The notes beneath the pieces are model-generated. The model did not search any database and was not told where the DNA came from. It worked only from the letters and a program-made list of their open reading frames with translations. Both the position numbers and the translations under genes were made by a program. DNA of 64,000 nucleotides from an uncultured virus (IMG/VR IMGVR_UViG_3300033121_001607) (taxonomy: Duplodnaviria; Heunggongvirae; Uroviricota; Caudoviricetes): the IMG/VR virus record IMGVR_UViG_3300033121_001607. The stretch is one strand, 5' to 3'. This document shows, in pieces, positions 26,160 to 62,911 of this stretch. Within the stretch, counting starts at the first letter, position 1, and the number at the start of each line of letters is the position of its first letter.

Positions 26160-26170
26160 TTGCTCATTCC

Positions 26171-26590: not shown

Positions 26591-26602
26591 ATCTTTGGCT
26601 CC

Positions 26603-27574
26603 TTATGCAACATCAATCGTCTTGCCAAGCTGGCGAATATCTGAATCCACCATAATATGACAAAGCTCTTTCATAGACGTTTTCGGAGACCATCCAAGCT
26701 TTTCACGAGCCCTTGAAGGATCGCCAAGTAAAAAGTTCACTTCTGAGGGTCTGAAATACTTCGGGTCAATAACAACATAATCCTTCCAATCAAGATTGAC
26801 CCTACAAAATGCTTCTTGCAAAAAATCTCTAACACTATAACTCTGACCTGTTGCAACAACAAAATCTTCAGGTTTATCCTGTTGAAGCATAAGCCACATC
26901 GCTTCAACATACTCTTTTGCATAACCCCAATCTCGCTTAGCGTCAAGATTGCCAAGACGAAGCTCTTTCTGTAAACCGGCCTTGATTCTCGCGACCGCCC
27001 TCGTTATCTTTCTTGTAACAAACGTTTCTCCTCGTCTAGGACTTTCATGATTAAAAAGAATACCGCTGCACGCATACATGCCATATGATTCTCTATAGTT
27101 TCTTGTCAAATAATGAGCGCAGGCTTTTCCGCATGCATAAGGGCTTTGCGGCAAAAAGGTTGTTAGCTCATTTTGAGGAGGCAATGCTGCGCCAAACATT
27201 TCGCTAGACGAAGCGTTGTATATCTTAGAGTCAAGACCCAAAGACCTTACAGATTCAAGTATATTCAACGTACCAAGAGCAGTTGAAGCTACAGTATAAT
27301 GAGGTATTTCAAAACTAACCTTAACATGAGACATAGCCGCAAGATGGTATATTTCGTCTGGCCGAGTTTCATTAATAACTCCAGATATACTTGTTTGATC
27401 AAGCATATCCGCATGATGCAAATGCAACTTATCAAAGATATGATCTATCCTTTCTGTGTTAAAAGAGCTAGACCTACGCAAAGTTCCATGAACTTCATAA
27501 CCCTTAGAAAGCAAAAACTCAGCAAGATAAGAACCGTCTTGGCCTGTTACGCCACTTATTAGTGCTTTTTTCAT
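26603..27574 (-). CDS. gmd: GDP-mannose 4,6-dehydratase
   Basis: [55 protein letters not shown]. Confidence 0.97.
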
Positions 27575-28488
27575 ACACCCTCTTTCGCTAAAGTTTGCTG
27601 AAGATACCAGTCATACGTTCTTCTAAGTCCTTCGTCTAAATCAACAAATGGTTCTAGAGCAAAAACGCTTGATATCTTTGAGATATCAACGTCTTTTCTA
27701 TGAATACCATCAAGTTTGCCATTATAATGAATGCTACCCCAATAGTTCGTAACTTTTGCGACCGCTTGAGCAATCTCTGCTATTGAATAATTTCTTGGAT
27801 TCGCAAAATTAAACTCGCCACTAATATCTGAATTCAGAATACGCAAAAGCATTTTAGCAAGATCATCAACATAAGTTAACTGTCGCAAAGGCAAGCCCGT
27901 TCCATAAAGCTCAACAATATCTTTACCCTCTTTTACGGCATTATGAAATTTAAGCATAAGCGCAGGAATGACATGGCTTTTCTGCAAATCAAACGTGTCA
28001 TGAGGGCCATAAAGATTGCTAGGATAAACAACAGACCAGTTTAAGCCATATTGCCGCCTAGCCGCTTCTATTTGAACCTGCATCATTCTCTTCGCAAAAG
28101 CATATCCATAGTTTGTCTTTTCTGGATAGCCCTTGTGAAGAACCTCTTCCTTAATTGGATAAGATTCTACAACAGCAGGGTAAACGCAAGTGCTAGAAAG
28201 AGCAATTACTTTTGGAATTCTCAGTTCTACACAGGCGTTGATAACATTTGTATTAATTCTGAGATTTTGAACAAAGTAATCGTATATAAAATCAGAATTG
28301 TCTTTAATACCACCAACTCTTGCGGCAAGATGAATTACGGCGTCGGGTTTGTGAGCGAAAAACAATCCGCTAACCCCTCTTGTGTCTCTCAAATCACAAT
28401 CCATAGAACTTAGATAAGTTGCATCAGGAAGAATTTTCTTCAGGGCATTCCCGACCATTCCAGTTCCACCTGTCACCAAAACTTTCAT
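27571..28488 (-). CDS. fcl: GDP-L-fucose synthase
   Basis: [45 protein letters not shown]; adjacent to gmd. Confidence 0.92.
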
Positions 28489-28498
28489 TTTATTCCTT

Positions 28499-28882
28499 TC
28501 AAAAACATTGTTCGTCGTCTTTGAGTTCATTTTCTAACTCTTCATCAAAGATAAAAGCCTCGTCCAAGACTTCAATTTCCGGAGGAGGCTGTATAAAATA
28601 ATGAATGCCATCATTTTGAGAAGACTTGGTGAAAGTCATTTCTCCGTCTCGAAGGATATTCTCTATTACAGGAAAGTCTACCGGGTCTATAACCAATTCT
28701 TGTTCAACCCTATTTATCTGGCAAAAACTAATTATTGTATAAACCTTATCCATTTCCATGCCAATTTCTTTTAGCTTGATCACTTTAGGCTTGCGCTTGC
28801 CTCTCTTGATTGGCTTATCATCCTTTGCCTTTTTAGCAATCTTATTCGGCTTGACCTCCGCTCTCTCTATCTTTCTCCTCAT
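28499..28882 (-). CDS. Hypothetical protein (basic N-terminus, acidic C-terminus)
   Basis: GGAG RBS before ATG 28882. Confidence 0.55.
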   Translation of the reverse strand: MRRKIERAEVKPNKIAKKAKDDKPIKRGKRKPKVIKLKEIGMEMDKVYTIISFCQINRVEQELVIDPVDFPVIENILRDGEMTFTKSSQNDGIHYFIQPPPEIEVLDEAFIFDEELENELKDDEQCF

Positions 28883-28958
28883 ACACACTCTCCATAATAT
28901 GACTGAACATATATTTTTCGGAGTTAGCACAGGAAGCAATTGCGCATTTCACCAAATA

Positions 28959-29642
28959 TTAAGGTAATCTGGGATTGAAGTTAGATCTTTTTCTGCGCTC
29001 GTATGTTCTTCCGTCTTGCCGGTAAAACGATTCGTTTCGCATATGAAGCTGATCCTTTCCTGTATAGTCAACCCAATCATGCTTGATTATGACCTTATCG
29101 AGATATACAGCTTTATTCATAGCATAAACAGAATCATGGAACTCATTATCGCAAAAAACGCTTATATAGCTTGTATGGTAAATATAGCCAAAATGGTCAT
29201 ACATAGGCTTGCCCATGATCGAAAGAGTTATCAATCGTTGCCCAACTCGACCATCATTATAATGCAAAGCGCCATTGAAATCTGGAAAATGCTTAGTCAT
29301 GTCATTATATATGATCTTATCGTAACCCTTTTCTACGGGCGTCATATCATCGCTCGCTAGTAAGAGAATTTTCCAATCGCTATGATGATGCATGTCGGCA
29401 TTTATAGCTTGAACTTTGGTTTTAGAGTTACCATAGTAGTAAAAAATATTCTGCCTTCCGCCGTTTGCTGGACTCAACCACCATTTCATGTCCTCATTAT
29501 TCATTGTAAGGTCATCAGAATCCATAGAAACAATAAATTTGACTCTTAACTCACCAGACAACATACTATAATACTTGTCAAACTGATTACGAAATTTGTC
29601 CGGACGCCCTCTTGTTGGGAATTTGATTAAAAGATCAAACAT
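28959..29642 (-). CDS. GT-A fold (GT2-like) glycosyltransferase
   Basis: IKFPTRGRP, DSDD, AINA, LLASDDM, FGYIY, FCDNE. Confidence 0.7.
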   Translation of the reverse strand: MFDLLIKFPTRGRPDKFRNQFDKYYSMLSGELRVKFIVSMDSDDLTMNNEDMKWWLSPANGGRQNIFYYYGNSKTKVQAINADMHHHSDWKILLLASDDMTPVEKGYDKIIYNDMTKHFPDFNGALHYNDGRVGQRLITLSIMGKPMYDHFGYIYHTSYISVFCDNEFHDSVYAMNKAVYLDKVIIKHDWVDYTGKDQLHMRNESFYRQDGRTYERRKRSNFNPRLP

Positions 29643-29643
29643 T

Positions 29644-30096
29644 TTACACTCCTGCCTCAGCAAAATGAGCAACAAAATCTGAACATATTGCATAAACTGG
29701 CTTTTGCTTCCAATTTTTGATATCATCTAAAGATAACAAAGGGATAACAGACTTTTCTGTTGCTTCTTGCAAATTGTGAGACCAAACCAATTTGGTGTTA
29801 GCAATTGCAACGTGATTTTCTTTTTCATGATAGAAAAGTCTTAAGTCACTATCAATCAGGTTATCCATAGCGGCAAAATTCTTTGTGTGAATCCAAAGCC
29901 TATTTTTACGGTCCAAAAGCCATTGCTTATCAACAGGATACTGAGGGTCGTCATGGCCTAAATAAAGCTGATCTGTAAACCAAACATCAATTTCAACATC
30001 ATATCCGCTATCAATAGCTTTTTGTATGTATTCGATCTTGTTTTCTTCAGAAGGATTTAGTCCTCTGATATTACCTCTGTGAGAAATAATTATCAT
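29644..30096 (-). CDS. Short glycerophosphodiester phosphodiesterase-like protein
   Basis: ISHRGN, ENKIEY, DVEIDV, LGHD, WIHTKN, ICSD. Confidence 0.75.
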   Translation of the reverse strand: MIIISHRGNIRGLNPSEENKIEYIQKAIDSGYDVEIDVWFTDQLYLGHDDPQYPVDKQWLLDRKNRLWIHTKNFAAMDNLIDSDLRLFYHEKENHVAIANTKLVWSHNLQEATEKSVIPLLSLDDIKNWKQKPVYAICSDFVAHFAEAGV

Positions 30097-30107
30097 AAAT
30101 ACCTTTT

Positions 30108-30455
30108 CTAGATTTCTTCGATGCGCTTAGCTTTATCGTCAATTATCAGATCATATAACGGTTTCTTGTCGCCCATTTCAAGTCTATGAAATTTAGCGCC
30201 CCACTTCTGTAGCTGAAGGGCGGTAAGCTCTCTCAAATAGCTAAGTCTTTCCTTATTGTGCGGCTGAGAGCTTCCTCTAGCTGTCCAATAAACAATTATC
30301 CAACCACTATCATATAGCTTGTTAATTTTTGCGATGTTAAAATGATTTGGGACGGCATTCTCGTATACTCTTTCATCATCAAAAAAGCATATCGTTTCGT
30401 CTATGTCAATAAACGCTGTTGGAACCTCATTGTTTTTTTGATGCGATTCTAGCAT
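30108..30455 (-). CDS. Small HAD-family (capsule-locus type) phosphatase
   Basis: FIDIDETIC, WTARG, KP.YDLIIDDK; start uncertain. Confidence 0.75.
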   Translation of the reverse strand: MLESHQKNNEVPTAFIDIDETICFFDDERVYENAVPNHFNIAKINKLYDSGWIIVYWTARGSSQPHNKERLSYLRELTALQLQKWGAKFHRLEMGDKKPLYDLIIDDKAKRIEEI

Positions 30456-31272
30456 TGTAAGTTGTCCAATAATCAAAACTTCTAACAAGATCATAATAAT
30501 TCCTAATCTTTTGAGGAGATCTCATAATCATTTGCCAAGCCTCAAATGTCTGCACTTCTTCTGGCGTTCCAAAAACAGTTACAAAATCGGTTGGGTATGC
30601 ATGAACATTTAATCCATCCTTGATGAGAAGATTATAGACAAGCGTAACATAAAACTCGCCTTTGTAATTGATATCAAGATTCATTAACTTTTGAAAGTAT
30701 TCGCGAACATAGCTACCCTTTTTGAAATAGTAAGTTCCTGTTGAGCCATGTTCGTTCCAAAAATTGTCAGAATACGGTTCTTTTTCTTTGATTTCTAGAA
30801 CTTTCTGATTATCGTCCTTAATGTGAGCCATAAACGTTGGACTCAAACGATGAGGATGAAATCCAACATGACTTAGTATACATCCGTCGCTATTGTTATC
30901 TTTGACCCACTTCTTGAAATGCTCATAATCCCAAAGGTAGGGATTGTCGCAGTAAGAAATGATAACTTCTTCATCATCTTCAACTGTATTCATGACGCCA
31001 GAATCCAAAACGGTAAATACTGGCCCTTTTTTGTGAGGAGAGATGGTAAGTATTTGGCAGTTTGGAGAAAGATTCTTGAGAATTTGTCTCATTTCTGTAG
31101 TCTCTAAATGAGTTGCATTGCATATAAACACAAAATCATCTTTAGGATCAAACATCTCGTAGATGTACTCAATAATTCTTTTGCCGTTGACCCGGATAAT
31201 AGGCTTAGGATCGGTATAGCCTGCTCTTACAAAGCGGTCACCAGTACCAGCCATAGGAATGATTACTTTCAT
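30427..31272 (-). CDS. Sugar-phosphate nucleotidyltransferase
   Basis: IIPMAGTGDRF...PKPII, YCD, EIKEK, GTYYF, GEFYV, FGTPEE. Confidence 0.85.
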   Translation of the reverse strand: MKVIIPMAGTGDRFVRAGYTDPKPIIRVNGKRIIEYIYEMFDPKDDFVFICNATHLETTEMRQILKNLSPNCQILTISPHKKGPVFTVLDSGVMNTVEDDEEVIISYCDNPYLWDYEHFKKWVKDNNSDGCILSHVGFHPHRLSPTFMAHIKDDNQKVLEIKEKEPYSDNFWNEHGSTGTYYFKKGSYVREYFQKLMNLDINYKGEFYVTLVYNLLIKDGLNVHAYPTDFVTVFGTPEEVQTFEAWQMIMRSPQKIRNYYDLVRSFDYWTTYNARIASKKQ

Positions 31273-32750
31273 AGTGTTTGCCTGTGTTTTTCTGATTCAA
31301 GACCAAGAATCATCTTAATTTGAGTATCGGTCAAATATCTGATTTTGCCAAGTTTAGAACCAACTATATTGATATAGTTGTGAGCGGCAATGATTTCTTT
31401 TTTGTTGACGTTGTTTAAAAAAACAGCAGCATCTGGGAAGGCAAACCGTGTATCAGAATCTCTACCTGCAAAAAGAATATCAAATTCCTCAATTCCTTCT
31501 TGATTTTTGATATATTTCTTTGCGATATCGTTGATTTCATTTACAAAAGCAATCGCTTCGTCAAGAGAATCGCTTGATACTACTACGCCATGATTCTCAA
31601 GAAGATACACGTCCTTACTCAAATCACTCTTTCGAAACACTTCAAACAGATCGTAACCAGGAGTTGCATACGGTATGTACTCATACTTCATATGCCCCCA
31701 AAGAGTATCTGAAATTTGTTTCGAGTTTTCAAGACAAAGCAAAGTGGTTGGATAAATAGAATGAACGTGTATAACGTACTTTTTTAGAAGCAAGTGAAAT
31801 CCGACCTCCATCGAAGGTTTCTTATGCTTCATCGCAATCCTATTCAAAATAAGACTTAGCTGAATCTCGCTTAAAGAGTTGAGAATCTGTCTTGAATCTG
31901 TTGGATGAACTATGGAATAACCGCTAAGGCAGTTGATGTCTTTGATATCATATCCTGAAGCTTTTATGATCATAAAATCACCAGTCTTGACGGAAATATT
32001 GCCTCCTCCATTCTGGCACATCTCAACGCTCTGACCAATAACTTCTGAAATCTTTGTGAAATCTTTGAAATCACAAAGATATGTTTGTATAAATTCTAAT
32101 AAACCTCTTGGAATAAACTTATTAGTGTTTTTCTTTATTAAAACAGAGATATCTACAGATTCGTGCTTATCTCCAAGATTCTTGATCTGAGAAATTGCAT
32201 CTATTTTGACGACCACATCAGCAAGACTAATCTGCTTCTCTTTCAACATGGCAGTATCATGGCTGCGCTTCTTGATTATTTCAAGAACGTCATTGTACTT
32301 ATAGCCTCTTTGCTCTGTATCCCTAATAAGCTTCCAGTGGGTCACTATGCTTTTGTCAACATCAACAAAGATTTTGAGATCTATGAGAGCGTTGCTGGTG
32401 TCTGTATAAAAGGCATGTAGCCCTTCGACGACAATAATTGGCTTAGGTTCCAGTTTTATAGGAGCATTAAACCACCCACTCTTATGATTATAACTAGACC
32501 TCCATATTGGCTTACCGCTTGCAAGAGCTTCTAAATGACTATCTCCAAGCTCTAGATTGTTGGCATTGGGGTTCAAATGAGTAATGCCGCTCCACATTGG
32601 ATTATGTCTTTCCCATCTATGAAGATCATCTGTACTAATTGCTAGTATGTTTTCTTCACCAAAGAACAAAGCTATAATGTTAGCCATTGTGGATTTACCC
32701 ACACCGGACTCTCCTGATATACCAATAATAAAGGGCTTTTGTTGTTTCAT
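31269..32750 (-). CDS. Phosphoribulokinase-like kinase fused to a class II aldolase/adducin-family domain
   Basis: N-half: GISGESGVGKST, DDLH, NPNANN, YNHKSG, VVEGLH, WKLIRD..QRG. C-half: GGGNISVK, IKASG, PSMEVGFH, HVH, PG, LENHGVVV. Confidence 0.85.
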   Translation of the reverse strand: MKQQKPFIIGISGESGVGKSTMANIIALFFGEENILAISTDDLHRWERHNPMWSGITHLNPNANNLELGDSHLEALASGKPIWRSSYNHKSGWFNAPIKLEPKPIIVVEGLHAFYTDTSNALIDLKIFVDVDKSIVTHWKLIRDTEQRGYKYNDVLEIIKKRSHDTAMLKEKQISLADVVVKIDAISQIKNLGDKHESVDISVLIKKNTNKFIPRGLLEFIQTYLCDFKDFTKISEVIGQSVEMCQNGGGNISVKTGDFMIIKASGYDIKDINCLSGYSIVHPTDSRQILNSLSEIQLSLILNRIAMKHKKPSMEVGFHLLLKKYVIHVHSIYPTTLLCLENSKQISDTLWGHMKYEYIPYATPGYDLFEVFRKSDLSKDVYLLENHGVVVSSDSLDEAIAFVNEINDIAKKYIKNQEGIEEFDILFAGRDSDTRFAFPDAAVFLNNVNKKEIIAAHNYINIVGSKLGKIRYLTDTQIKMILGLESEKHRQTL

Positions 32751-33649
32751 TCTAGCATGCCTGTTTTCCTGAGTAATTTTTCTGTTGCTTCCATTCGTCG
32801 CCTACAATTATCTTCATCCAAGAAATGTTTAAATGGTCTTACAGCATGCAGATTCTTGTATTGACCCGCTTTTAGTCCTTCTTCGTCAACAGTATATGCA
32901 ACTCTTTCATCATCATACATTGACGAGTGTACATGATTCCCATCAGTTCTACCAACTCCGCTTTTAAGGAAGAAACCCCTAAAATTAACCCTACCCTCAA
33001 AAATGCTTTTTCTCAGCGATCTAGTTGACCTAAGTTCTTCTGCGCACCACAGATTGTGTTGTTCTATGGGATCGCATTGTCTATAGCCTCTTGTTCCGTT
33101 GTATTGTTTACTCTCAACAATATGACGTATACTCGCCTCAAATGAGTCTTCTATTGAGAGAGCATTCTTCATCATATGGCCTTTTGCAACATGATACTGA
33201 GCAGGTAGATTAGTGTCATGTCCCAGGTCTTTTTGGTTTTGCGGCGTAATAATCTTATTTGCCCAACCGTAGGCAGTTCCATTTAGTTGTGTTATACCGT
33301 CCGCATCAAGATGAAGGTAATGATCGTCTGGATAGCTAGCAATGTCAGTTGTAAGCCAATCGGTAGCTAAAGGATACATATCCATATCCCCAATAATCCA
33401 TGTCGTATTTGGCTCTGTTGTTGTATGAAAAAACTTACTCCATGTAATTTGTATTAACAAAGGCCATTGATCCATAACCGACATTTCAATAACCTTGCCA
33501 TACTCCTCGCTCATGTCAACTTTATTTCTATCCCCAAAAAAAAGACAGACAGGCTCTATGCCTAGTTTTGTCTTCCATATTTTTGCGTTCAAATTCCAGA
33601 AAACACTAAAAGTCTCAGAGCTTGAAAATACAACTTTATCTATTTTCAT
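32747..33649 (-). CDS. Putative glycosyltransferase (DxD), paralog of 35206..36108
   Basis: KVVFS, LGIEPVCL, IGDMDMYPL, LPAQYHVAKG. Confidence 0.55.
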   Translation of the reverse strand: MKIDKVVFSSSETFSVFWNLNAKIWKTKLGIEPVCLFFGDRNKVDMSEEYGKVIEMSVMDQWPLLIQITWSKFFHTTTEPNTTWIIGDMDMYPLATDWLTTDIASYPDDHYLHLDADGITQLNGTAYGWANKIITPQNQKDLGHDTNLPAQYHVAKGHMMKNALSIEDSFEASIRHIVESKQYNGTRGYRQCDPIEQHNLWCAEELRSTRSLRKSIFEGRVNFRGFFLKSGVGRTDGNHVHSSMYDDERVAYTVDEEGLKAGQYKNLHAVRPFKHFLDEDNCRRRMEATEKLLRKTGMLE

Positions 33650-34535
33650 CGTATCCCTCCTGCTCTAATTGAAATACGCTTTTATATCTCTTTTTTCCTA
33701 TCATTGCAGGAAAGCGACTAAAAGCAGAATATCTGTTTGATGTAACATTTATTGAACTTTTTGTCATTGTTGCTATATCAAAATATGTTTGCTGCCATTT
33801 CTCAAGACCATCTGGAATGGTTATCAAGTTTTTGCCTTTTGAAAGCAAATAATTTGCAAACTCCTGTTTCTTTTCATCTTGGTCGCTGCAAAGAAAGAAA
33901 TAATCGTATCTATCAGAAAAAACATCAAGACACTTATATGTCAATTCATTTAGTTCTTTTATTTCATTAGAATGGATGTGCATCCCATCTATCTCTCCGC
34001 CTCTAACTTTATCTCCTCTACGAATATGAAAAGAAGAGAATCTATCAGGAAGCTTAGAAAGATGGGTATTAATCTCATCACAAAATCCAAACTCGCTAGC
34101 AATTAAATCCACACATTTTTGAAACTCATCAAATGTAGAAACCTTATCTTGACAATAAGACATCCAGAATCTTCTAGGGTCACTTCCCCCTCCTAAAGCG
34201 TATTCAAATGTTGGATAATTTAAGCGTATCAAACGAAGTTCTTCTAAATTGATAATCCAATCTTTCGTTTTACACCCCTCTACCATAATATAAGGCTCTA
34301 CCTTTACATTATTAGGAAATCTTATGTATTTTTTAACATTTTCAAGTTGAGAATCTACATAGCGAAACGAAGGATCAAGATTTCTAGTTTCTTGTTTTTC
34401 GTGTCCTCTATAAACAGTCCAGGTTAATAGTAAATTAGACTTATGTAACTTAGCATAAGTTGCCATAAAAAGAATATCCAAAAGCCTATCTCCTAGCCCG
34501 CTTTCTGTTGGTTTTGTCCAATAAATAGATCTCAT
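33636..34535 (-). CDS. Fucosyltransferase-like GT-B protein (GT11/GT23-like motifs)
   Basis: GLGDRLL, HIRRGDK, FLCSD, SAFS; gmd and fcl are nearby. Confidence 0.7.
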   Translation of the reverse strand: MRSIYWTKPTESGLGDRLLDILFMATYAKLHKSNLLLTWTVYRGHEKQETRNLDPSFRYVDSQLENVKKYIRFPNNVKVEPYIMVEGCKTKDWIINLEELRLIRLNYPTFEYALGGGSDPRRFWMSYCQDKVSTFDEFQKCVDLIASEFGFCDEINTHLSKLPDRFSSFHIRRGDKVRGGEIDGMHIHSNEIKELNELTYKCLDVFSDRYDYFFLCSDQDEKKQEFANYLLSKGKNLITIPDGLEKWQQTYFDIATMTKSSINVTSNRYSAFSRFPAMIGKKRYKSVFQLEQEGYDENR

Positions 34536-34536
34536 T

Positions 34537-35189
34537 TCAATTTTTCCTAAAACAGGCCAAAGTGTCTCTAAAATCAGGTATTAGATCTTGAAAATCAGAA
34601 AATCCTGCCTTGGCAACTATTTTTTGCATAAATCTAAATCCATATAAAACCAAGCCGCTCCTTTAGGAGATACATTAGAGTGTTTATATGGAAGAATATA
34701 CTCATCACCTTTATCCATATGGTCTGGATGCCTATTAAAGTTTGCAAATAATATAAAAGCATGAGATCCATGCTTCATCTTATGAAACAGATTTTTTAAG
34801 TATTCTTCTTGAGCTTCACTCGACAAATGACAAAAAACACCATAGCTAAAAACGAAATCTATACTATCGTCTTCAACCCCAGAACATAAAAAATCTTTAT
34901 TTTTCAAATGAATATAAGTACAATCTGCCTCAAACTTTTTAGGAATTACATCCAAGCATATAACATGCTTAAAGTTAGGAATAAGATAATTTTTGGTCCA
35001 CAATCCTCCACCGCAACCTATTTCAAGACAAATATGGTCTTTATTATAAAAAGGTTTAACAAGTTTATCAATGTCATTTCTAGAATATTTTACTACACCA
35101 TTATTGACGTAGCCTTCAAATGATTCTTCATAACCTCCTGGCCATATTGTATCAAAAACTTCAGCTTCTGTGTCTCTTGGAAATTCCAT
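34537..35189 (-). CDS. Class I SAM-dependent methyltransferase; in-frame stop at 34617, apparent C-terminus in the -1 frame to 34537
   Basis: LEIGCGGG, IDFVFSYGVFCHL; an A6 tract precedes the TAG; the -1 frame gives IVAKAGFSDFQDLIPDFRDTLACFRKN*. Confidence 0.8.
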
Positions 35190-35205
35190 AATTAATTACC
35201 TACCA

Positions 35206-36108
35206 TTATTTAAGTATTCCTGATAAATCAATTATTCTTTCTAAAGCATTAGCCTGTAAATTATAAGGCCTAACTTGGCAACAATGAATGTCTACTATCT
35301 TTTTCTCAATCAAAAAGTTTCTATGGTATTCGTAATCGTTATTATTCTTATTCCATTCCCAAATACGTTCCGCCATAGTGAAATTAATGCCATCATAGAA
35401 AATTTTGTTGGCTTTTATTGCATTATATATACACTCTGAAGTATAGTTTTCTTCGGCCAACCAGTACCACCAAAACTGTCCACAACCCTGGAACGGAGGA
35501 AGAATTTCGGTCTTCTTTTCTATAGGCCAGTTTGAGCCAAAGCCCATTCCATACTTATCAGCCTGATAAATACTTCTAACAACATCTTCAAATGATCTAT
35601 TCTGAAAGTATAGGTTGTTGAAGTTATATCCCTTAGCAACATGATAGTGAGCGGGTAAATCACAACCAGTATAGCCTCCCTGCCTGCCGTGAACTTCCGA
35701 GCCAAGAGCCGTAAAAGCGTCTGATCGTCCGCACCTCGGCATAGCAATACCGCTATTGTTCAAGCAAAGATAATGGTCATCAGGATAGGGGGTTATCTTA
35801 GTTATGAAATGATGCTTCTGCAAAGGAAGCAAGTCAATATCCCCAATCATCCAAATTGTTTCTGGCTCTGATATGGTGTGATAGAACTTACTCATTGTTA
35901 ACTGAATACCCCAAGGGACATCAGGTAATAGTTCCATTTCAATGATTTTGCCGTAGTCCTCGTTCATATCAGTATTTGCTTTTTTGCCAAAAAGAAGACA
36001 AACAGGTTCAATCCCAAGACCTAGTTTACAGAGCTTGGAATGCATATTCCAATAAGAACTATAAAGAGGGGGTTCTGATACCGAAAAAACAACTTTCTGT
36101 ATACGCAT
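35206..36108 (-). CDS. Putative glycosyltransferase (DxD), paralog of 32747..33649
   Basis: KVVFS, LGIEPVCL, IGDIDLLPL, LPAHYHVAKG. Confidence 0.55.
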   Translation of the reverse strand: MRIQKVVFSVSEPPLYSSYWNMHSKLCKLGLGIEPVCLLFGKKANTDMNEDYGKIIEMELLPDVPWGIQLTMSKFYHTISEPETIWMIGDIDLLPLQKHHFITKITPYPDDHYLCLNNSGIAMPRCGRSDAFTALGSEVHGRQGGYTGCDLPAHYHVAKGYNFNNLYFQNRSFEDVVRSIYQADKYGMGFGSNWPIEKKTEILPPFQGCGQFWWYWLAEENYTSECIYNAIKANKIFYDGINFTMAERIWEWNKNNNDYEYHRNFLIEKKIVDIHCCQVRPYNLQANALERIIDLSGILK

Positions 36109-36116
36109 AGGATTCC

Positions 36117-36791
36117 TTATTTAACTTGATACCAATGAACTTCTTTATCTTGAGGCCTTACCGGGATAAGCTCATAATTTAATCCGTGTTTATCCCAATA
36201 CTCATGCAGTGCTTTTTTGGCCCCAACAAGAGCGTAGTCATCAACGATTACGAAGCCGCCCTTTTGTATCTTTGGATGCAAATACTCAAGACATACCTTT
36301 GTTGATTCATACAAGTCTCCGTCAAGTCTCAACAGAGAAATCTTCTCTATATTATTGAATGGAAGCGTGTCTTGGAACCATCCTTCAATAAACTGATATC
36401 TACTCATATCAAGTCGCCATCTTGTTCCGATGTTATACTTGACTGATTCCAAAGAATGCGAAGTAACTCCACTAGACTTGAGAAGCTCCCTTAGGTCTCC
36501 TGGAACCGATCTGTTTGGATCTAGTGGGCCAATGCCAGGCTGATCTGTGTCATTCGGTCCAGCAAGAGGAATCCCCTTATAGCTGTCATAGGCATAGATC
36601 TTTTTGTTTGAACCTGTTGCCTGACAAATATAGCCCATAACCCCGATTTGGGCACCAGCAGCAACACCGCACTCAACAAAGTCTCCTTCGATATTATTCC
36701 TGATGGCTCTTAGCGCTAAATCGTGAGTATTTTGTATAGTGTCTTCGTTAGAATAGGCTAAACTAGCATAAGGCTTTAATTCTGGCTGCAT
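36117..36791 (-). CDS. TylF/MycF/NovP-family sugar O-methyltransferase
   Basis: EGDFVECGVAAG, DSY.G, GWFQDTLP, LLRLDGDLYEST, IVDDY. Confidence 0.9.
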   Translation of the reverse strand: MQPELKPYASLAYSNEDTIQNTHDLALRAIRNNIEGDFVECGVAAGAQIGVMGYICQATGSNKKIYAYDSYKGIPLAGPNDTDQPGIGPLDPNRSVPGDLRELLKSSGVTSHSLESVKYNIGTRWRLDMSRYQFIEGWFQDTLPFNNIEKISLLRLDGDLYESTKVCLEYLHPKIQKGGFVIVDDYALVGAKKALHEYWDKHGLNYELIPVRPQDKEVHWYQVK

Positions 36792-36804
36792 AAATTCTCC
36801 TTTA

Positions 36805-37638
36805 TTATCTCCATCCGCAACTTTCTTCTATTTTTGTGATAATAGAACACTTTTCTTTGTTACCGTACTCATTATAGAAATCGGATATTTCTCGACTAGA
36901 GAAATAACCTCTGGATGTGTTACAACCAGAAGCCCCGATGTAATTGGTAAAATTGTCTCCTTTTTCTCTTACCATTTGAGGAATATCTTCCATGTAAGCA
37001 TCAGTAACAATCTTATTACTTGAACGATCATTCGGTCCACTTAAGTTATGTATTAGCACTGAGTTTTGAAAACGAGGCCAAACGGCGTTCATAAGAAAGT
37101 CTTGATCGTAACCAAATCTAGTGTGACCAGATTCCGTATACATTCCTGTCATAAAAACATTAAGAGAAGGACATTCCATCGCTTCTAAAAACTTAGGAGA
37201 ATAAAAACCGCACATACCTCCCATAAGGGGAATGCAATGACTAACATTATCAGTTATGCCATGAACAGTTTTGCGGCTTGAAATAAATGATCTAACGCAT
37301 TGAAGCTGTCGAGGAGTTAAAATTGAATCAGAATCTCTGCAAAATACATACTCAGTATTCTCCCATATGGGCAACATTCTCCATAACATCATAGTACATT
37401 TTAATCTTTTTTGATAAAGCCTGCCTTCGTCAGGGACAACAAAAATATTTATCAATCCTTCATTAGCAAGTTTTTTAAGAACCGGACAATATCCCTCATC
37501 ATTAAGTTCATGATCTGTGTATATCCAAAAAGCCCAAGAAGAATCCCAATAAAAAGTAAAATGCTGCCTTATATTTGCAGCAAATCCAGGTGACCATTTC
37601 GCTTTGTCGCCAAACATGGAATAACTATTGACTTTCAT
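36805..37638 (-). CDS. Putative glycosyltransferase, paralog of 37635..38351
   Basis: SYSMFG, WRMLP, RDSDS, PLMGGMCG, DQDFL. Confidence 0.55.
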   Translation of the reverse strand: MKVNSYSMFGDKAKWSPGFAANIRQHFTFYWDSSWAFWIYTDHELNDEGYCPVLKKLANEGLINIFVVPDEGRLYQKRLKCTMMLWRMLPIWENTEYVFCRDSDSILTPRQLQCVRSFISSRKTVHGITDNVSHCIPLMGGMCGFYSPKFLEAMECPSLNVFMTGMYTESGHTRFGYDQDFLMNAVWPRFQNSVLIHNLSGPNDRSSNKIVTDAYMEDIPQMVREKGDNFTNYIGASGCNTSRGYFSSREISDFYNEYGNKEKCSIITKIEESCGWR

Positions 37639-38351
37639 TCTATTATTTCTCCAACATGAACACCGCTAGTCATTGGTGAATGATCTGGGAATGGTCTAAT
37701 ATCATGTTTCCCAAAAAATCTTATTGGATCATAAACATAATCAAAATCTGAATCTAATTTATCATCTTCAATTGTTCCTTGTCTATGTTCGCCTTTTTCA
37801 ACGATAAGGCCGTTACAATACTTATCATGAGCAAGTATTGTGTCTATATAGTTAGACCAAATCTGTGTTCTCAAAAAATCCTGATCACTTCCTTTATAAT
37901 CATTTGCAGACCATTGAGAAACGAGTTGCTCCATATTAGGAATAACTTTATCTCTACATCCCCACATCCCGCCAAGCATAGGTACATTATGCTCAATATG
38001 GTCTCTCATGCAATGAATCTTCTTATTGCTCAAAAGCCATTCATCAACCGCTGCTTTTTCTCTTTCATTCAATCTTGAATCAATATCTCTTGAAATAAAA
38101 ACATCAGCTTCAGAAGCAGGTAAAAATCTCCAAAACAAACCTTCCCAATTATCTTTTAGAGTATTTTTAATAACAACCTCAGCGCCAAAGCCTTTAATTT
38201 GCCGAATAAAATCCTTATTAACTTCTGAATCGCAATAAAACCTAACAATCCAACCTGGATATATTTTTTCTGCAAGATTGATGTTCTCAATACATCCATT
38301 AAGATATTTGAACGAGTTTCCCCAAACACTAAAAGATATAATCTTTAACAT
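37635..38351 (-). CDS. Putative glycosyltransferase, paralog of 36805..37638
   Basis: ISFSVWG, YPGW, WRFLP, SRDIDSR, MRDH..H, MLGGMWG, DQDFL. Confidence 0.6.
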   Translation of the reverse strand: MLKIISFSVWGNSFKYLNGCIENINLAEKIYPGWIVRFYCDSEVNKDFIRQIKGFGAEVVIKNTLKDNWEGLFWRFLPASEADVFISRDIDSRLNEREKAAVDEWLLSNKKIHCMRDHIEHNVPMLGGMWGCRDKVIPNMEQLVSQWSANDYKGSDQDFLRTQIWSNYIDTILAHDKYCNGLIVEKGEHRQGTIEDDKLDSDFDYVYDPIRFFGKHDIRPFPDHSPMTSGVHVGEIIE

Positions 38352-38354
38352 AAA

Positions 38355-39137
38355 TTATGCCCTCTTATTCAAATCCTCTTTAAGAGATTTTAGACGTTCT
38401 TCCATAGGTGATGAAACAATTTCATTATAAAGATCAGCATTTACGCTAAAAGAAGTTAATCTTTTATGATTCAAATGAAGAAAAGCACTATCTCGAATTT
38501 CGTGAAGATTAGTAAGTTTATTTATTCTTTCCCAAAACTCGCAGTCTTCGCTACCATAGCCATAAAACTTCTCGCACATTCCGCCTACACTAATAAAAGC
38601 TTTCTTAGTAAAAGCAATACTACCTCCTGAAAAATAATCAACTCTCTTACTACCTCTCCAAACAACAATATTGCGCATTAGTTCAACGTTGTAAATTTCT
38701 TTTCCAAGAAAACAACAGTCATAAGAATTCAAAAATATATCTATTCTTTGTAAATACCCTTTTGGAGGAACTACGTCAGCGTCATTCATAACAATCTTTG
38801 AATACATTGCGAACATAACACCAGCATTTATCGCGATACTCTTATTGAATGGCTTTGACAAACTTTTTGTAAATATCTTTTTAACTCTAGAATCATTTTT
38901 AAATCTATCAATATTTATTCTCTCAACAGAATCTTCTTCCGAAACAACAATTTCCATTGGTTCAACATTTTGTAATAAAAGTCTAGAAATACAGTAGTTA
39001 AGATTTGATTGTCTATCAACTCCCCGAATAGGAATGACGACAGTTATTCCTGAAACAGGCTGTACGGAAGCTGAAGAAAACTCAAAATGCTTTCGTATAT
39101 CAAGAGGAAGATTATTTATAGATCTGGGAAGTATCAC
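38355..39137 (-). CDS. GT2/GT7-like glycosyltransferase
   Basis: VVIPIR, FNKS.AIN.G, DADV, GGMCEKFYGYGSED, HLNH. Confidence 0.85.
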   Translation of the reverse strand: MILPRSINNLPLDIRKHFEFSSASVQPVSGITVVIPIRGVDRQSNLNYCISRLLLQNVEPMEIVVSEEDSVERINIDRFKNDSRVKKIFTKSLSKPFNKSIAINAGVMFAMYSKIVMNDADVVPPKGYLQRIDIFLNSYDCCFLGKEIYNVELMRNIVVWRGSKRVDYFSGGSIAFTKKAFISVGGMCEKFYGYGSEDCEFWERINKLTNLHEIRDSAFLHLNHKRLTSFSVNADLYNEIVSSPMEERLKSLKEDLNKRA

Positions 39138-39724
39138 CTAATTCTCCTATTAGATCTTTTAAAGGAACCACTATTTGGAGGGCCTCCTTTTTCATATAGA
39201 TAATGATAGACAACCCCGCTAATGAATCGCTCTTCTTTTAATAAAGGAAAGAGTCTTGTTGAATAATCCTTGTCCTCTCCAAAATTGGTTTCCGGAAACT
39301 TAACTTGTAAAGCAATTTCTCTTTTAACAGGATTTAGATGATTTGGGCAACGATAATAAATGTTGTTCTGTTCAAACCATTCTTTATATTTCAAAGAATG
39401 TATAAACATTCTTGGCCCTTGACCTTGAAACGTAATAATCCCTTGAATACCACAACAATCCGGATTGGATTCTATCGCCTCAAGAATTTTTTTGACATAA
39501 TCTTCAGAAACCAAATCGTCGTCATCAACAAATACTATATAATCTCCGGTTGCCTCTTCTAATAAAAGGTTTCTTTTGGCTCCAATAGCTATTTCTCCAT
39601 TATCTGTTTTGATAAGGACTTCAACAGAATCGTTTACTTGAGGCTGCAAGACAGTCATTAGTCTTTGTAGCTTATCTGCTCTAGAAGATAATGAGCATAT
39701 AAGTATTGAAAGTTTTTTATCCAT
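39134..39724 (-). CDS. GT2-family glycosyltransferase
   Basis: LSILICSL, IGAKRN, YIVFVDDDD, FGED. Confidence 0.85.
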   Translation of the reverse strand: MDKKLSILICSLSSRADKLQRLMTVLQPQVNDSVEVLIKTDNGEIAIGAKRNLLLEEATGDYIVFVDDDDLVSEDYVKKILEAIESNPDCCGIQGIITFQGQGPRMFIHSLKYKEWFEQNNIYYRCPNHLNPVKREIALQVKFPETNFGEDKDYSTRLFPLLKEERFISGVVYHYLYEKGGPPNSGSFKRSNRRIR

Positions 39725-39726
39725 GT

Positions 39727-40545
39727 TTACTTCCTATTCCTGAGCTTATGCGCTCTCTGTTTTTCATAAGACCTAACCCATCTATTCAATGCAATCGCTT
39801 TTTTATCATTAGGATTTGGCGAAAGCATTTCTTTTGATATTTGAGCATTCTGGTCCGCCAATCTTTGAAATCCTTTACCTTTTTCAACCGCGTGCCATTG
39901 AGTAAAATTACGCTCACCCCTATTAAATCCTTTTTCTTTCATCCAATTTCTTCCAAGATCTTTCAATATAACAGCCCTATGGTCGAATGGAAAATAAAGA
40001 AATCCTTCTGGTTTGTATCCGCCGCAAAGAGTTCTTATTTGAACTTCAGGATTATCGACTATGTTCATTTTTTCGGCTATCTCTCTGCAAAATGTTCCTC
40101 TTAAAAAACAGGGAGAAAGCCAAAAATTATTCTTAACATTCTTCCATGCTCTAAAAGCTAACTGCTGAACATGAGGAGGTATAAAAAACTGATTGAAAAT
40201 TGAAACCTTAAAAGGAGTTAGCAACTCCCAGTCGTCCTCTAAATGAAAACAATAGTACGTTTCAATCTTTGAAAAACACCACTTTACAGCAGCCGCAAAG
40301 TTAGGATTTTCAGGCATGTTGACAATGACATTGCCAAAATACTTTCTCGCGATATCTGCGACTTCTTGCCTTTTATGGTCGTCTCTTTTGTCAGGAAAGC
40401 TATCTATATTCAAAAGCAGAGTTGCTTGTTTGAAATCGAATCCCAAAAAATGTCTTGAAAAAGAAGCATAGGTTTGGTCTATGATTTCCGGCCGAGGCAT
40501 TGCGGTTGTTGTGAAAGTCAAAGTATTTTCAGTTATTGGGTACAT
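39727..40545 (-). CDS. Putative glycosyltransferase, tandem paralog of 40529..41302
   Basis: FTTTAMPRPE, NID, NFAAAVKW, HLEDDWELL, NPE.QIR, DLGR.W. Confidence 0.6.
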   Translation of the reverse strand: MYPITENTLTFTTTAMPRPEIIDQTYASFSRHFLGFDFKQATLLLNIDSFPDKRDDHKRQEVADIARKYFGNVIVNMPENPNFAAAVKWCFSKIETYYCFHLEDDWELLTPFKVSIFNQFFIPPHVQQLAFRAWKNVKNNFWLSPCFLRGTFCREIAEKMNIVDNPEVQIRTLCGGYKPEGFLYFPFDHRAVILKDLGRNWMKEKGFNRGERNFTQWHAVEKGKGFQRLADQNAQISKEMLSPNPNDKKAIALNRWVRSYEKQRAHKLRNRK

Positions 40546-41302
40546 CTTTCCCTCTAAAATTGCCATCAAGTTTCGATATATCTATTTCGCTATTTTGATC
40601 TTGTATTAATTGCTCTCTTGCTCTTATAAGAACATTAGGAACGAACTCCCAAGAAGTCCAAGTATCCATGCCTCTTGCAAATGGAGTATCCTTCATCCAT
40701 GTTCTTCCCAAGTCTCTAAGAATAATCTTATTGTCCTCATAAGGCCAATATATAAATGATTCCTCAACCTTATATGGATTGAGACCCCTAATCTGCCATT
40801 CGGGATTACGTTTCGTATGCATTTCAGCAGCAACCTTATGACAAAAAGAAGTCTTTAAGATTGACGGGCTAAGAACAAAACGAGGATCAGATTTTTTCCA
40901 AGCTCTAAAACCAACCTGTATAATCTTTGGGTCATCAAAAAAAGAAGCGACATACTCGGGTACGTCGCAAAGTAGTTCCCAATCGTCTTCTAGATTGAAA
41001 ACGAACTCTCTATTCGCATTTGAAAAAATCCATTTAACAGCAGCAGGGAAATTCCCTCTTATCTGTATATTTGTTGTTACTTCGCCAAAATACTCTTTAG
41101 CAATATCAATAATAGATTGAACTCGTTGAGCATGATCTTCGTAATGATGAGGAAAGTAGTCAATATTGATAAACAATGGGCATTTCTTCAAATCAAGCCA
41201 AGGAAGATATTGCTTGAAAGAAGAATACGTTTTAACAAGAAGCTCTGGACGAGGCATCGCCGTTGTTGTGAAACATATATTTTCAGAATTTGGTCTTGTC
41301 AT
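40529..41302 (-). CDS. Putative glycosyltransferase, tandem paralog of 39727..40545
   Basis: FTTTAMPRPE, NFPAAVKW, NLEDDWELL, DLGRTW. Confidence 0.6.
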   Translation of the reverse strand: MTRPNSENICFTTTAMPRPELLVKTYSSFKQYLPWLDLKKCPLFINIDYFPHHYEDHAQRVQSIIDIAKEYFGEVTTNIQIRGNFPAAVKWIFSNANREFVFNLEDDWELLCDVPEYVASFFDDPKIIQVGFRAWKKSDPRFVLSPSILKTSFCHKVAAEMHTKRNPEWQIRGLNPYKVEESFIYWPYEDNKIILRDLGRTWMKDTPFARGMDTWTSWEFVPNVLIRAREQLIQDQNSEIDISKLDGNFRGKDVPNN

Positions 41303-41305
41303 ACC

Positions 41306-41635
41306 TTAGTGCTTTATCATCTTAGACGGAGTAACCATGAGCCAAATCTCATTGTCCGCCTTTATATTTTCGTCAGTTTTCTCCGGATCTTTTAGCTCAG
41401 TATGAAACAAATTCTCTGCACAAATGCCTTCGCAAATAGAAAGACTATCCTTGTGGATGCAAACATATAATTTTTTGGTTGAGTTATCGATGTAGAAAAA
41501 TCTAAGAAGCTCTTTCATTGCGCTGATAACATTAGCGGTATCGTAGCCTTGTCTAAACTCGACACTATACTCTTCAAGATAGATGAAGTTTTTATGCATG
41601 ATTTGCCCTTTGTCAATAGTTCTAAATTTGGGCAA
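41306..41635 (-). CDS. Hypothetical protein
   Basis: TTG start with GAGG RBS. Confidence 0.5.
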   Translation of the reverse strand: MPKFRTIDKGQIMHKNFIYLEEYSVEFRQGYDTANVISAMKELLRFFYIDNSTKKLYVCIHKDSLSICEGICAENLFHTELKDPEKTDENIKADNEIWLMVTPSKMIKH

Positions 41636-41650
41636 ATCAATCCTCTAGAA

Positions 41651-42139
41651 CTATTCTAAAGCCCAAGGAATCCTGCGAAGTCTGTAAAAATACCTAATAA
41701 CATCATAAACCGCGCCTTTACCGCCGGAAAAGTGCGAAGAATAGACAGAGTGTTCGATGATTTCAGGCACGGCATCAGAGGGGCATCCAGAAAAAGCTGC
41801 CTCAACAATACACTTGTAATCATTCTCAGCATCACCAATATAAGCAACTTCCTCCCAGCTTAACTTGTTTTCAATTATGTACTCGCTTAGTTTTACAAAC
41901 TTATTATCACAGCCCGATAGAATAGGATACTTTTTACCAACTTTGGCATAAATTACCCTATCTCTTGAACCCGTTAGGAATACTATCTGAAAACCATTCT
42001 TAGCGGCTTGATCTATTGCGTACATATCTCTTGTGAAGAAATTCTTATATACATCGCCCGCCTCGTTAATATAATAATTTCCGTCAGTAAGCGTTCCATC
42101 TACGTCTATAGCTATCAGTTTTACAGTTTCAATACTCAT
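41651..42139 (-). CDS. kdsC: KdsC-type HAD phosphatase (KDO8P/KDN9P phosphatase family)
   Basis: DVDGTLTDG, F..RD, K, AYIGDAEND, P.DA, GGKGAV. Confidence 0.85.
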   Translation of the reverse strand: MSIETVKLIAIDVDGTLTDGNYYINEAGDVYKNFFTRDMYAIDQAAKNGFQIVFLTGSRDRVIYAKVGKKYPILSGCDNKFVKLSEYIIENKLSWEEVAYIGDAENDYKCIVEAAFSGCPSDAVPEIIEHSVYSSHFSGGKGAVYDVIRYFYRLRRIPWALE

Positions 42140-60165: not shown

Positions 60166-60174
60166 ATTATCTCC

Positions 60175-62905: not shown

Positions 62906-62911
62906 AGTCAT

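Follow-up and report, generated by a model that had tools for sequence, protein, structure and literature searches.

Why should a phage carry a phosphoribulokinase (PRK)-type kinase among its glycan genes, joined to a class II aldolase and with no RuBisCO at hand? This question is raised by the gene at 31269..32750 in a stretch of 64,000 nucleotides of DNA from an uncultured virus (IMG/VR record IMGVR_UViG_3300033121_001607), the whole of which is called here the window. PRK counts as one of only two enzymes peculiar to the Calvin-Benson cycle (PMC5241800). A sequence-only reading of the locus had seen in the fusion a Calvin-cycle-type kinase repurposed to supply an activated ketose or pentulose to the adjacent glycosyltransferases (GTs). 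Our comparisons show the fusion to be a genuine two-domain protein. The most likely reading, at about an even chance, makes it the lead gene of a five-function cassette, which would turn ribulose 5-phosphate (Ru5P) into an activated five-carbon sugar for a phage-made glycan.

The fusion is a genuine two-domain protein

Both domains were found by Pfam in one open reading frame (ORF) of 493 aa: PF00485 (PRK) matches residues 8-182 (E 8.9e-33, 114 bits, cut-off 22) and PF00596 (Aldolase_II) residues 244-413 (E 1.2e-16, 61.6 bits, cut-off 22.2). The motifs on which the sequence-only reading relied are all present in the translation, namely DDLH (41-44), PNANN (61-65), YNHKSG (87-92), VEGLH (108-112) and WKLIRDTEQRG (139-149) in the kinase half, and GNISVK (250-255), PSME (312-315), HVH (328-330) and NHG (386-388) in the aldolase half. 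A search of 1.84 billion representatives gave 379 proteins matching the fusion at E <=1e-30, and at least 119 clusters at 90% identity contain both domains. The 120 best-listed homologs are 34-92% identical to it and, excepting one fragment, 446-524 aa long; 119 of them have the two domains. As the whole fusion is moreover present in 61 of the 67 IMG/VR loci recovered with the family alignment, it is not an assembly artefact. The public names of these homologs are generic ('uridine kinase / ribulose-5-phosphate 4-epimerase'), and such labels on fusion genes are misleading.

Searches of a collection of 50,697 phage records gave no blastn match to the 3.1-kb region, and tblastn with the fusion hit just 4 records, through Udk-like matches that never covered more than 37% of the query; no cultured phage with the fusion was found in that collection by tblastn.

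Invariant residues were called on a family alignment of 27 members. In the kinase half they comprise the Walker A P-loop (GESGVGKS, residues 13-20, with G13, S15, G18 and K19), D41-D42-x-H44, R48, Y87, H89, G110-L111-H112 and K140, and in the aldolase-fold half G250-N251-x-S253-x-K255, S265-G266, S313-x-E315, H328-x-H330 and N386-H387-G388. A C-terminal extension of ~80 residues follows, with invariant P439-D440, E487 and R490.

The kinase half belongs to the PRK side of its family

PF00485 spans both PRK and Udk, and public pipelines, as seen above, put uridine kinase in the name of this family; on that basis the N-terminal half could be a uridine/cytidine kinase for nucleotide salvage, fused by chance to an unrelated domain. 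The scores point the other way. Among the NCBIfam models the phosphoribulokinase NF005655 gave 199.3 bits (cut-off 236, with only profile positions 4-219 of 326 covered) versus 82 and 80 bits for the Udk models, and the best PDB matches were the cyanobacterial PRKs 9qko, 6hzk and 6kev at ~138 bits, uridine kinases reaching <=59 bits. Over residues 4-187 the fusion kinase aligns to 6hzk and 6kev without a gap.

A tree of the kinase domain was built with IQ-TREE (quick search, support by the Shimodaira-Hasegawa-like approximate likelihood ratio test, SH-aLRT, only) from 108 rows: 28 fusions, 34 bacterial proteins of ~700 aa described below, 32 shorter proteins including genome-derived canonical cyanobacterial and archaeal PRKs, and 14 Udk-like or weakly scoring proteins. 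The fusions form one clade (SH-aLRT 98) nested, together with the bacterial ~700-aa proteins, in a clade of 79 rows (SH-aLRT 98). Canonical PRKs (L125, Methanothrix, Archaeoglobus) fall outside this larger clade, and 13 of the 14 Udk-like rows lie on the outgroup side; the remaining one, L134, has a very long branch, is misplaced inside the PRK side and is probably a class I PRK. The kinase thus groups next to canonical class II PRKs and not with uridine kinases; it does not branch within the canonical cyanobacterial/archaeal PRK clade in this tree. Of the description 'Calvin-cycle-type kinase', the PRK type holds by score, PDB alignment and tree, while the Calvin-cycle enzymes are a sister lineage to which the fusion kinase does not belong.

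The residues expected to hold the substrate tell the same story. We mapped them using a gap-free alignment to the Synechococcus PRK and the residue list in the CrPRK/AtPRK structure paper (10.1101/422709), in which Arg64, Tyr103 and His105 contact the Ru5P phosphate and Arg159, Asp160 and Arg164 lie in the catalytic loop. Their counterparts by motif are R48, Y87 and H89, which are invariant, and R143, D144 and R148, conserved in >=90% of rows. CrPRK Arg67, which the same paper gives as not strictly conserved, is replaced by Pro51. Since all six residues are invariant or >=90% conserved, the substrate is very probably a sugar phosphate held the way Ru5P is. With these PRK-specific ligands kept and the Udk-like proteins as outgroup, we consider the chance of a salvage uridine kinase practically negligible.

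The fusion kinase therefore shares with class II PRK (PF00485; NF005655; 6hzk, 6kev, 9qko, 5b3f) the fold family, ~40-45% identity over ~185-210 residues, the P-loop, DDxH, YNH, EGLH and RDxxxRG motifs, the Ru5P-phosphate ligands and the catalytic-loop residues. Unlike class II PRK, it is fused to an aldolase-fold domain (viral) or to a GT-C membrane domain (bacterial), lacks a RuBisCO partner and is placed among glycan genes, not carbon-fixation genes; as had been stated from the sequence, a Pfam scan of 63 window ORFs turned up no RuBisCO family.

The aldolase-fold half is a distinct subfamily

An aldolase-fold profile built from 36 viral and bacterial members had as its nearest structure 3m4r (E 4.6e-29). 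This is a class II aldolase domain, itself uncharacterised, that forms the N-terminal part of a bifunctional aldolase/short-chain dehydrogenase/reductase (SDR); FucA structures followed (E 1e-14 to 1e-9), and MtnB reached only E 1.5e-4. Viral and bacterial members alike show no variation in the zinc histidines H328, H330 and H387, in E315 (the glutamate of PSME) or in the phosphate-pocket motifs GGNxSxK and SG, and the motifs of the fusion align to the HxH, NHG and PSSE motifs of FucA. FucA models gave 24-31 bits on the fusion (cut-offs 264-400). The domain hence has the zinc histidine triad, catalytic glutamate and phosphate pocket of the superfamily of FucA, RhaD, AraD, MtnB and 3m4r, and differs from FucA, RhaD, AraD and MtnB as a distinct subfamily marked by the C-terminal extension. 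FucA-type enzymes hold a 1-phospho-2-keto sugar on zinc; as this is the end that a PRK creates, the two halves may well carry out consecutive steps.

Partner genes of the fusion

The nucleotidyltransferase, HAD and GDPD-like genes announced by the sequence-only reading indeed follow the fusion on the same strand, with ends overlapping or nearly touching (Table 1). There are 4-nt overlaps between the fusion and the upstream gene, termed U300 (32747-32750), and between the fusion and the nucleotidyltransferase gene (31269-31272); 11 nt separate the HAD and GDPD-like genes.

Table 1. Features of the fusion locus and its surroundings, in window positions.
Feature	Position	Strand	Basis
Bifunctional kinase-aldolase fusion, 493 aa, ATG start	31269..32750	-	Pfam PF00485 + PF00596
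PRK-type kinase domain, ~residues 1-215	32106-32750	-	PF00485, NF005655
Zn class II aldolase-fold domain with conserved C-terminal extension, ~residues 225-493	31272-32078	-	PF00596
Sugar-phosphate nucleotidyltransferase, 281 aa, GlmU/RmlA-like fold	30427..31272	-	PF12804 27 bits; phrog_3980 E 3.6e-57
Minimal HAD-type phosphatase, ORF 128 aa	30108..30494	-	DxDxT; phrog_1238 E 3.8e-21
Mini GDPD-like (glycerophosphodiesterase-fold) protein, 150 aa	29644..30096	-	Invariant GDPD motifs; AF2 model
GT-A-fold glycosyltransferase, unnamed viral family 'U300', 300 aa	32747..33649	-	GDxD; AF2/Foldseek
U300 paralog	35206-36108	-	Paralog of 32747-33649 protein
Putative glycosyltransferase, directly downstream of GDPD-like gene	28959..29726	-	phrog_14945 'glycosyltransferase' E 2.1e-12
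Glycan island, ~18 kb, surrounding the fusion locus	26603..44472	-	Pfam

The nucleotidyltransferase matches GlmU, RmlA and GalU weakly in NCBIfam; its profile has 4evw as best PDB match (E 7.5e-21) and weakly matches 'putative 6-deoxy-D-mannoheptose pathway' proteins (6jq8, 5xhw). The small HAD probably starts at Met14 (30455), giving 115 aa, and keeps all four HAD motifs as invariant DxDxT (D17, D19, T21), T58-A-R-G, K98 and D102/D107. It matched no Pfam or NCBIfam family; the best PDB match of its profile is 9iqw, a 'capsule biosynthesis protein' (E 3.3e-19), and by name essentially all of its 7960 relatives are 'hypothetical'.

The mini GDPD-like protein, also with no Pfam match, carries invariant H6-R7-G8, E35-x-D37, G47-H48-D49, H70 and K72; its profile aligns to the GDPD 7e0v over residues 2-52 only (E 0.0014). 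In its AlphaFold2 (AF2) model (predicted local distance difference test score, pLDDT, 95.8) the six best Foldseek matches, and 14 of the first 15 rows, are GDPDs with template-modelling (TM) scores of 0.4-0.6. Being ~100 residues shorter than the matched solved GDPDs and a full (beta/alpha)8 barrel, the modelled protein may be a half-size or oligomer-completed barrel.

U300 gave no Pfam or NCBIfam match. It has an invariant G87-D88-x-D90, and its AF2 model (pLDDT 82.6) found 126 PDB matches at E <=1e-3, led by GT6 blood-group transferases and the GT8 enzyme LgtC at TM ~0.4, making it a candidate transferase for the cassette product. The gene downstream of the GDPD-like one likely starts near 29642; its protein has no Pfam match, and homologs occur in 12 related loci.

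The cassette is conserved in viruses

To describe the neighbourhoods we counted downstream genes in the 59 IMG/VR loci having the whole fusion and >=2 kb of downstream DNA; the viral loci were not dereplicated, and 42 distinct GDPD-like sequences (130-185 aa) stand among 61 matches. A nucleotidyltransferase homolog lies <=4 kb from the fusion in all 59 loci and a GDPD-like homolog in 58 of them, whereas the small HAD was found in 33/59 by phmmer (36/67 by hidden Markov model, HMM). The usual gene order is that of the window: fusion, nucleotidyltransferase, HAD, GDPD-like. In the group of L071, which is without the small HAD, the nucleotidyltransferase has an N-terminal HAD_2 domain of the beta-phosphoglucomutase-like group.

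A U300 homolog stands directly upstream of the fusion in 32 of 60 loci, and 54 of the 61 whole-fusion loci hold U300, another GT-A/GT2-like glycosyltransferase gene or a GDP-sugar gene. Homologs of the fusion are thus linked to glycan genes, both in viruses and in the bacteria described below (GT2 in 20/21 loci, GtrA in 16/21). An SDR gene is often near the cassette in related loci, and a TylF-type O-methyltransferase is inserted in the cassette of L065, L066 and L090, the first of which is named as a giant-virus metagenome-assembled genome (MAG).

Cyanophages and bacteria carry variants of the cassette

In Synechococcus phages S-SM2 and Bellamy a double nucleotidyltransferase, a GT61 glycosyltransferase, a class II aldolase, a small HAD and a GDPD-like gene are contiguous. 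Identity to the window homologs is 44% for the nucleotidyltransferase (measured on the first half of the double protein), 29-32% for the aldolase, 46-48% for the small HAD and 36-41% for the GDPD-like protein. Across the 12.7-kb regions of S-SM2 and Bellamy the kinase HMM detected no PRK-type kinase; kinases of the PfkB and GHMP families are near the cassette there, and these phages may use them instead or may encode the kinase elsewhere. Moreover, Bellamy encodes (L002:3776-4933) a relative of the window nucleotidyltransferase fused to ribose-5-phosphate isomerase B (PF02502, E 3.9e-32), a direct link of this nucleotidyltransferase family to pentose-phosphate chemistry.

Bacteria carry what, by gene content, is a split version of the phage cassette. 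The nearest kinase relatives in GTDB genome contigs are ~700-aa proteins with the PRK domain at about residues 400-600, preceded by 400 residues with 5-9 predicted membrane spans. This N-terminal domain has a GT87 Pfam match in one member, P0249, which carries GtrA as well, as does P0217, and resembles GT87/MptA-type GT-C clusters in a protein atlas (score 0.96-0.98), which we take as a lead only. In P0174 the membrane GT-C domain, the kinase and the aldolase are in a single protein. Among 21 loci encoding such a membrane-PRK protein, a stand-alone aldolase of the same subfamily is present in 18, a nucleotidyltransferase in 19, a HAD_2 protein and a GT2 in 20 each, and GtrA in 16; the nucleotidyltransferase usually has a second one beside it or forms a fused pair. 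Two of the GT2s were scanned, and their best matches, weak and below cut-off, are to ArnC, PgfS and PpgS-type polyprenyl-phosphate transferases. Neither the window nor the cyanophage cassettes gave any match to an HMM of the membrane domain; the phage has no counterpart of the GT-C part.

Gtr-type three-component glycosylation employs a GtrA flippase, a GtrB-like GT2 and a GT-C transferase. The bacterial cassette likewise has GtrA, a GT2 and a GT87-like GT-C domain, the latter, unlike in the Gtr-type system, fused to a kinase; the phage cassette differs further in being without any membrane proteins and in having soluble GT-A enzymes instead.

A conserved protein of ~200 aa without a Pfam family, bearing HR, ExD and HD motifs, is also encoded in 21 bacterial loci. 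Compared with the viral GDPD-like family by hhalign it gave a probability of 85% (E 5.8e-6, 65 columns only); the viral GDPD-like HMM missed it at E <=0.01, the link coming from motif reading and hhalign only. On account of these motifs and this match we consider the GDPD-like protein a core member of the set in viruses and bacteria. The gene had been listed simply as part of an operon; that part stands, and its presence in nearly all viral loci and its remote bacterial homolog indicate that it is no bystander.

A proposed pathway to an activated five-carbon sugar

Based on the conserved residues, the PRK-type domain would phosphorylate C1 of Ru5P, or of a close pentulose 5-phosphate, giving a 1,5-bisphosphate. 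The aldolase-fold domain would then bind the 1-phospho-2-keto end, as FucA and RhaD do, and by way of a metal-bound enediolate could reset the configuration of C3/C4. The simplest reading is an epimerisation at one of these two carbons, towards a xylulose-type sugar, since a plain cleavage would break the sugar down. In a third step the HAD phosphatase would strip the 5-phosphate and so allow furanose closure. The nucleotidyltransferase would add a nucleoside monophosphate to produce a nucleoside diphosphate (NDP)-pentulose or NDP-pentose, and the mini GDPD-like protein would carry out some phosphodiester step. Finally, the adjacent soluble GT-A would place the sugar on a glycan made by the phage; in the cyanophages GT61 would install it, and in bacteria the GT2/GtrA/GT-C lipid-carrier route. 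Four fusions bear on the order of the steps: kinase-aldolase in the window, GT-C-kinase-aldolase (P0174), HAD-nucleotidyltransferase (L071) and nucleotidyltransferase-RpiB (Bellamy). A donor of an activated ketose or pentulose for the neighbouring GTs, as first proposed for the locus, accords with the kinase type, the glycan linkage and the GT-A fold, and neither of the two outcomes that would have spoken against it, a grouping with uridine kinases or homologs unlinked to glycan genes, was found. Domain identities, catalytic residues, fusions and synteny are what the data show; the product and the aldolase chemistry are what we infer.

The NDP-heptose pathway consists of the GmhA isomerase, the HldE/HddA kinase, the GmhB HAD phosphatase and the HldC/HddC nucleotidyltransferase. 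Its logic is that proposed for the cassette: a monophosphate is converted to a bisphosphate, the HAD removes the distal phosphate, and nucleotidyl transfer follows. The comparison was already made by the sequence-only reading, and kinase, HAD and nucleotidyltransferase are indeed encoded together. It does not fit fully, since the carbon that a PRK phosphorylates in a ketose is C1 and hence not the anomeric one; the cassette kinase, if PRK-like, would do the same and is of another family. In addition, the cassette has extra aldolase-fold and GDPD-like enzymes, and no isomerase is present in the window.

Several observations weigh against the proposed pathway. The kinase scores 199 against the NF005655 cut-off of 236, is without the C-terminal third of PRK and lies outside the canonical clade, so its substrate may differ from that of PRK. 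In FucA and AraD a catalytic tyrosine comes from the second subunit (Tyr113 and Tyr229/Asp120, respectively); no evident counterpart of FucA Tyr113 was seen in the aldolase half, with no conserved tyrosine aligned to the FucA 'HYM' region. The small HAD was not found in 26/59 viral loci by phmmer, or in 31/67 by HMM, and that of the window is of a different subfamily from the bacterial HAD resembling ribulose 1,5-bisphosphate (RuBP) 5-phosphatase. The Foldseek matches of the mini GDPD-like model to GDPDs are weak, all at E 1.5e-3 or weaker, and, because several viral loci are near-copies, the locus counts overstate the independent support. Furthermore, an NDP ester of a ketose C1 phosphate is no ordinary glycosyl donor, and the neighbours are Leloir-type GT-A or polyprenyl-phosphate GT2 enzymes. 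Three ways round this non-anomeric phosphate are conceivable: a phosphodiester-type donor, a different true kinase site, or relocation of the phosphate to C2 by the nucleotidyltransferase and the GDPD-like enzyme.

The first of these ways would make the product a non-glycosidic donor, an NDP-1-pentulose (or a pentitol derivative after reduction) comparable to CDP-ribitol or CDP-glycerol, from which pentulose phosphate would be transferred as a phosphodiester-linked decoration, with the GDPD-like protein editing or transferring that phosphodiester. The carbon to which a PRK attaches its phosphate is primary and not anomeric, the core of the set includes a phosphodiesterase-fold protein, an SDR gene is frequently close to the cassette, and a fragment of a TagF-type glycerophosphotransferase (PF04464) was found in one bacterial locus, L015. 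CDP-D-xylulose occurs in pneumococcal serotype 17F, and ISPD reportedly makes CDP-ribulose by nucleotidyl transfer to a ketose 5-phosphate (PMC4924997), which we count in favour of such a donor. However, the partners GT-A (phage), GT61 (cyanophage) and GT2 with GtrA and GT-C (bacteria) are glycosyl-transfer systems and not phosphotransferases, and the conserved core has no reductase; we consider a phosphodiester donor unlikely.

Relocation to C2 would instead make the cassette the missing route to glycosidic keto-pentoses such as xylulofuranose: the kinase would put a handle on C1, the bisphosphate would be epimerised, C5 would be freed and the phosphate would be moved from C1 to the anomeric C2. 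For example, an NDP-1-ketose could collapse to a 1,2-cyclic phosphate, which would be opened to the 2-phosphate and then converted to a true NDP-ketofuranose donor, the nucleotidyltransferase and the universally linked mini-GDPD jointly shifting the phosphate. We regard this scheme as decidedly doubtful. Xylulofuranose, free or methylated, is reported from the N-glycans of chloroviruses MT325 and TN603 in the review PMC9614988, where its absolute configuration is given as undefined; this sugar and the TylF-type insertions mentioned above are leads, not evidence.

The other comparison to be made is with haloarchaea. In their non-carboxylating pentose bisphosphate pathway (Sato et al. 2022, PMC9700705) a HAD RuBP 5-phosphatase gives cyclised ribulose 1-phosphate (Ru1P), the substrate of a Zn class II aldolase; both enzyme types are shared with the cassette. 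Our third step is modelled on this, since the two bacterial HAD_2 proteins scanned had NF053830 (RuBP 5-phosphatase) as their best model. They scored 176.6 and 140.5 bits on it, where its cut-off is 330, and 132 and 83 on the next family. The haloarchaeal pathway, according to the same paper, is catabolic: RuBP comes from nucleosides via ribose 1,5-bisphosphate (R15P) isomerase, and the end products are dihydroxyacetone phosphate (DHAP) and glycolaldehyde. In the cassette a PRK-type kinase would supply the RuBP, a nucleotidyltransferase and glycosyltransferases go with the set, and scores against the models of the haloarchaeal pathway are far below the equivalog cut-offs.

A phage copy of that route, serving as a catabolic or host-rewiring shunt, would run from Ru5P through RuBP and Ru1P to DHAP and glycolaldehyde, draining pentose phosphates for energy or nucleotides. 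PRK-type kinase, HAD and class II aldolase are exactly the enzyme types it needs (PMC9700705), the bacterial HAD is closest to RuBP 5-phosphatase, and the aldolase half weakly matches the haloarchaeal Ru1P aldolase model NF053831 (E 1.1e-6, 28 bits, cut-off 300). Nevertheless the domain is nearer to 3m4r and RhaD-type domains than to the Ru1P aldolase, and such a shunt leaves unexplained the invariably linked nucleotidyltransferase and GDPD-like genes, the fusion of the bacterial kinase to GT-C and to GtrA, and the location within an 18-kb glycan island; we judge it very unlikely.

The surroundings also bear on the target of the sugar. Large phages glycosylate their DNA, with pentoses included (PMC12838424, PMC13326640), and the window encodes two DNA methyltransferases and a deoxynucleoside monophosphate (dNMP) kinase, so that the activated sugar might hypermodify phage DNA bases in place of protein or polysaccharide. 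This appears extremely unlikely: the bacterial cassette is fused to an outward-facing lipid-carrier GT-C system, the cassette is also in the giant-virus-MAG contig L065, it stands among about a dozen glycosyltransferase-like and sugar-methylating genes, and no base-hydroxymethylase or DNA glycosyltransferase gene was recognised in the window.

In the open-access literature we found nothing on the fusion, the cassette or an NDP-pentulose pathway, and no paper on xylulofuranose biosynthesis or NDP-pentuloses; subscription papers and supplements may hold relevant work. The kinase-phosphatase-nucleotidyltransferase logic is already known from heptose activation; what is new are the enzyme families, the extra steps of the aldolase-fold and GDPD-like enzymes, and the likely product.

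Genomic context of the locus

The source of the window is an uncultured large (jumbo-type) phage. All long ORFs are on the minus strand, no tRNA genes were found in the window, and PHROG/Pfam matches include a split DnaE-type polymerase, a clamp loader, a RecA/UvsX-like recombinase, a primase-like Toprim protein, an intein-bearing UvrD helicase, a dNMP kinase, a topoisomerase and DnaJ. The closest DNA is that of two IMG/VR contigs of ~257 kb each, L058 (92% protein identity at the locus) and L059 (65%), and both keep the gene order of the glycan island.

Besides the cassette, the island encodes a GDP-mannose dehydratase and a GDP-fucose-synthase-like SDR, two GT2s, TylF-type and class I methyltransferases and six unnamed proteins of 240-300 aa. 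Directly downstream of the GDP-mannose 4,6-dehydratase and GDP-fucose-synthase-like genes there is an IMPDH/GMP-reductase-family gene (25071-28530, minus strand, for the group), a neighbour also present in L058 and L059, which may couple guanine-nucleotide supply to GDP-sugar synthesis. A second sugar-activation set at 41651-44472 (minus strand) is composed of a KdsC-like HAD, a NeuB-family synthase, a CTP_transf_3 cytidylyltransferase and an MptE-like protein, and looks like a CMP-nonulosonic (or ulosonic) acid pathway plus its transferase. Two tandem pairs of paralogous 240-280-aa proteins without a Pfam family (36805-38351 and 39727-41302, minus strand) could likewise be glycosyltransferases of unnamed families; 8 related loci encode homologs of the first pair, which adjoin the cassette in L112-L120.

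Outside the island, the DnaE-type DNA polymerase III alpha is split in two minus-strand ORFs, 57336-59312 and 61517-62911; one holds the PHP domain and the start of the NTPase domain and the other the remaining NTPase domain, the fingers and HhH. The ~2.2 kb between the halves (59300-61520) encode a Dam-type N6-adenine methyltransferase (60175-61020) and two unnamed ORFs. The UvrD-type helicase at 45489-48749 (minus strand) is broken by an intein, with Intein_splicing at residues 63-475 and a LAGLIDADG_3 homing-endonuclease domain at residues 260-330. A protein of 895 aa (5314-8001, minus strand) has a poly(A) polymerase/CCA-adding head and an HD domain after an unmatched N-terminus of 290 residues.

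Implications

If the proposed pathway is true, the PRK type of kinase has a large unrecognised second role in the building of surface glycans, a role that would span phages, a contig named as a giant-virus MAG and many bacterial phyla. The product of the cassette would then be a nucleotide-sugar not described before, its sugar probably being a pentulose or else a rare pentofuranose. In the bacterial version, a lipid-carrier GT-C physically joined to the first cytoplasmic step of the synthesis of its own sugar would be an unusual coupling of a pathway. Should the phosphate in fact be relocated to C2, the cassette would represent a new way to activate a ketose and would explain the xylulofuranose of chloroviruses. 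With the pathway true, the cassette would also offer a candidate, open to test, for how viral and bacterial glycans come by their keto-pentose residues.

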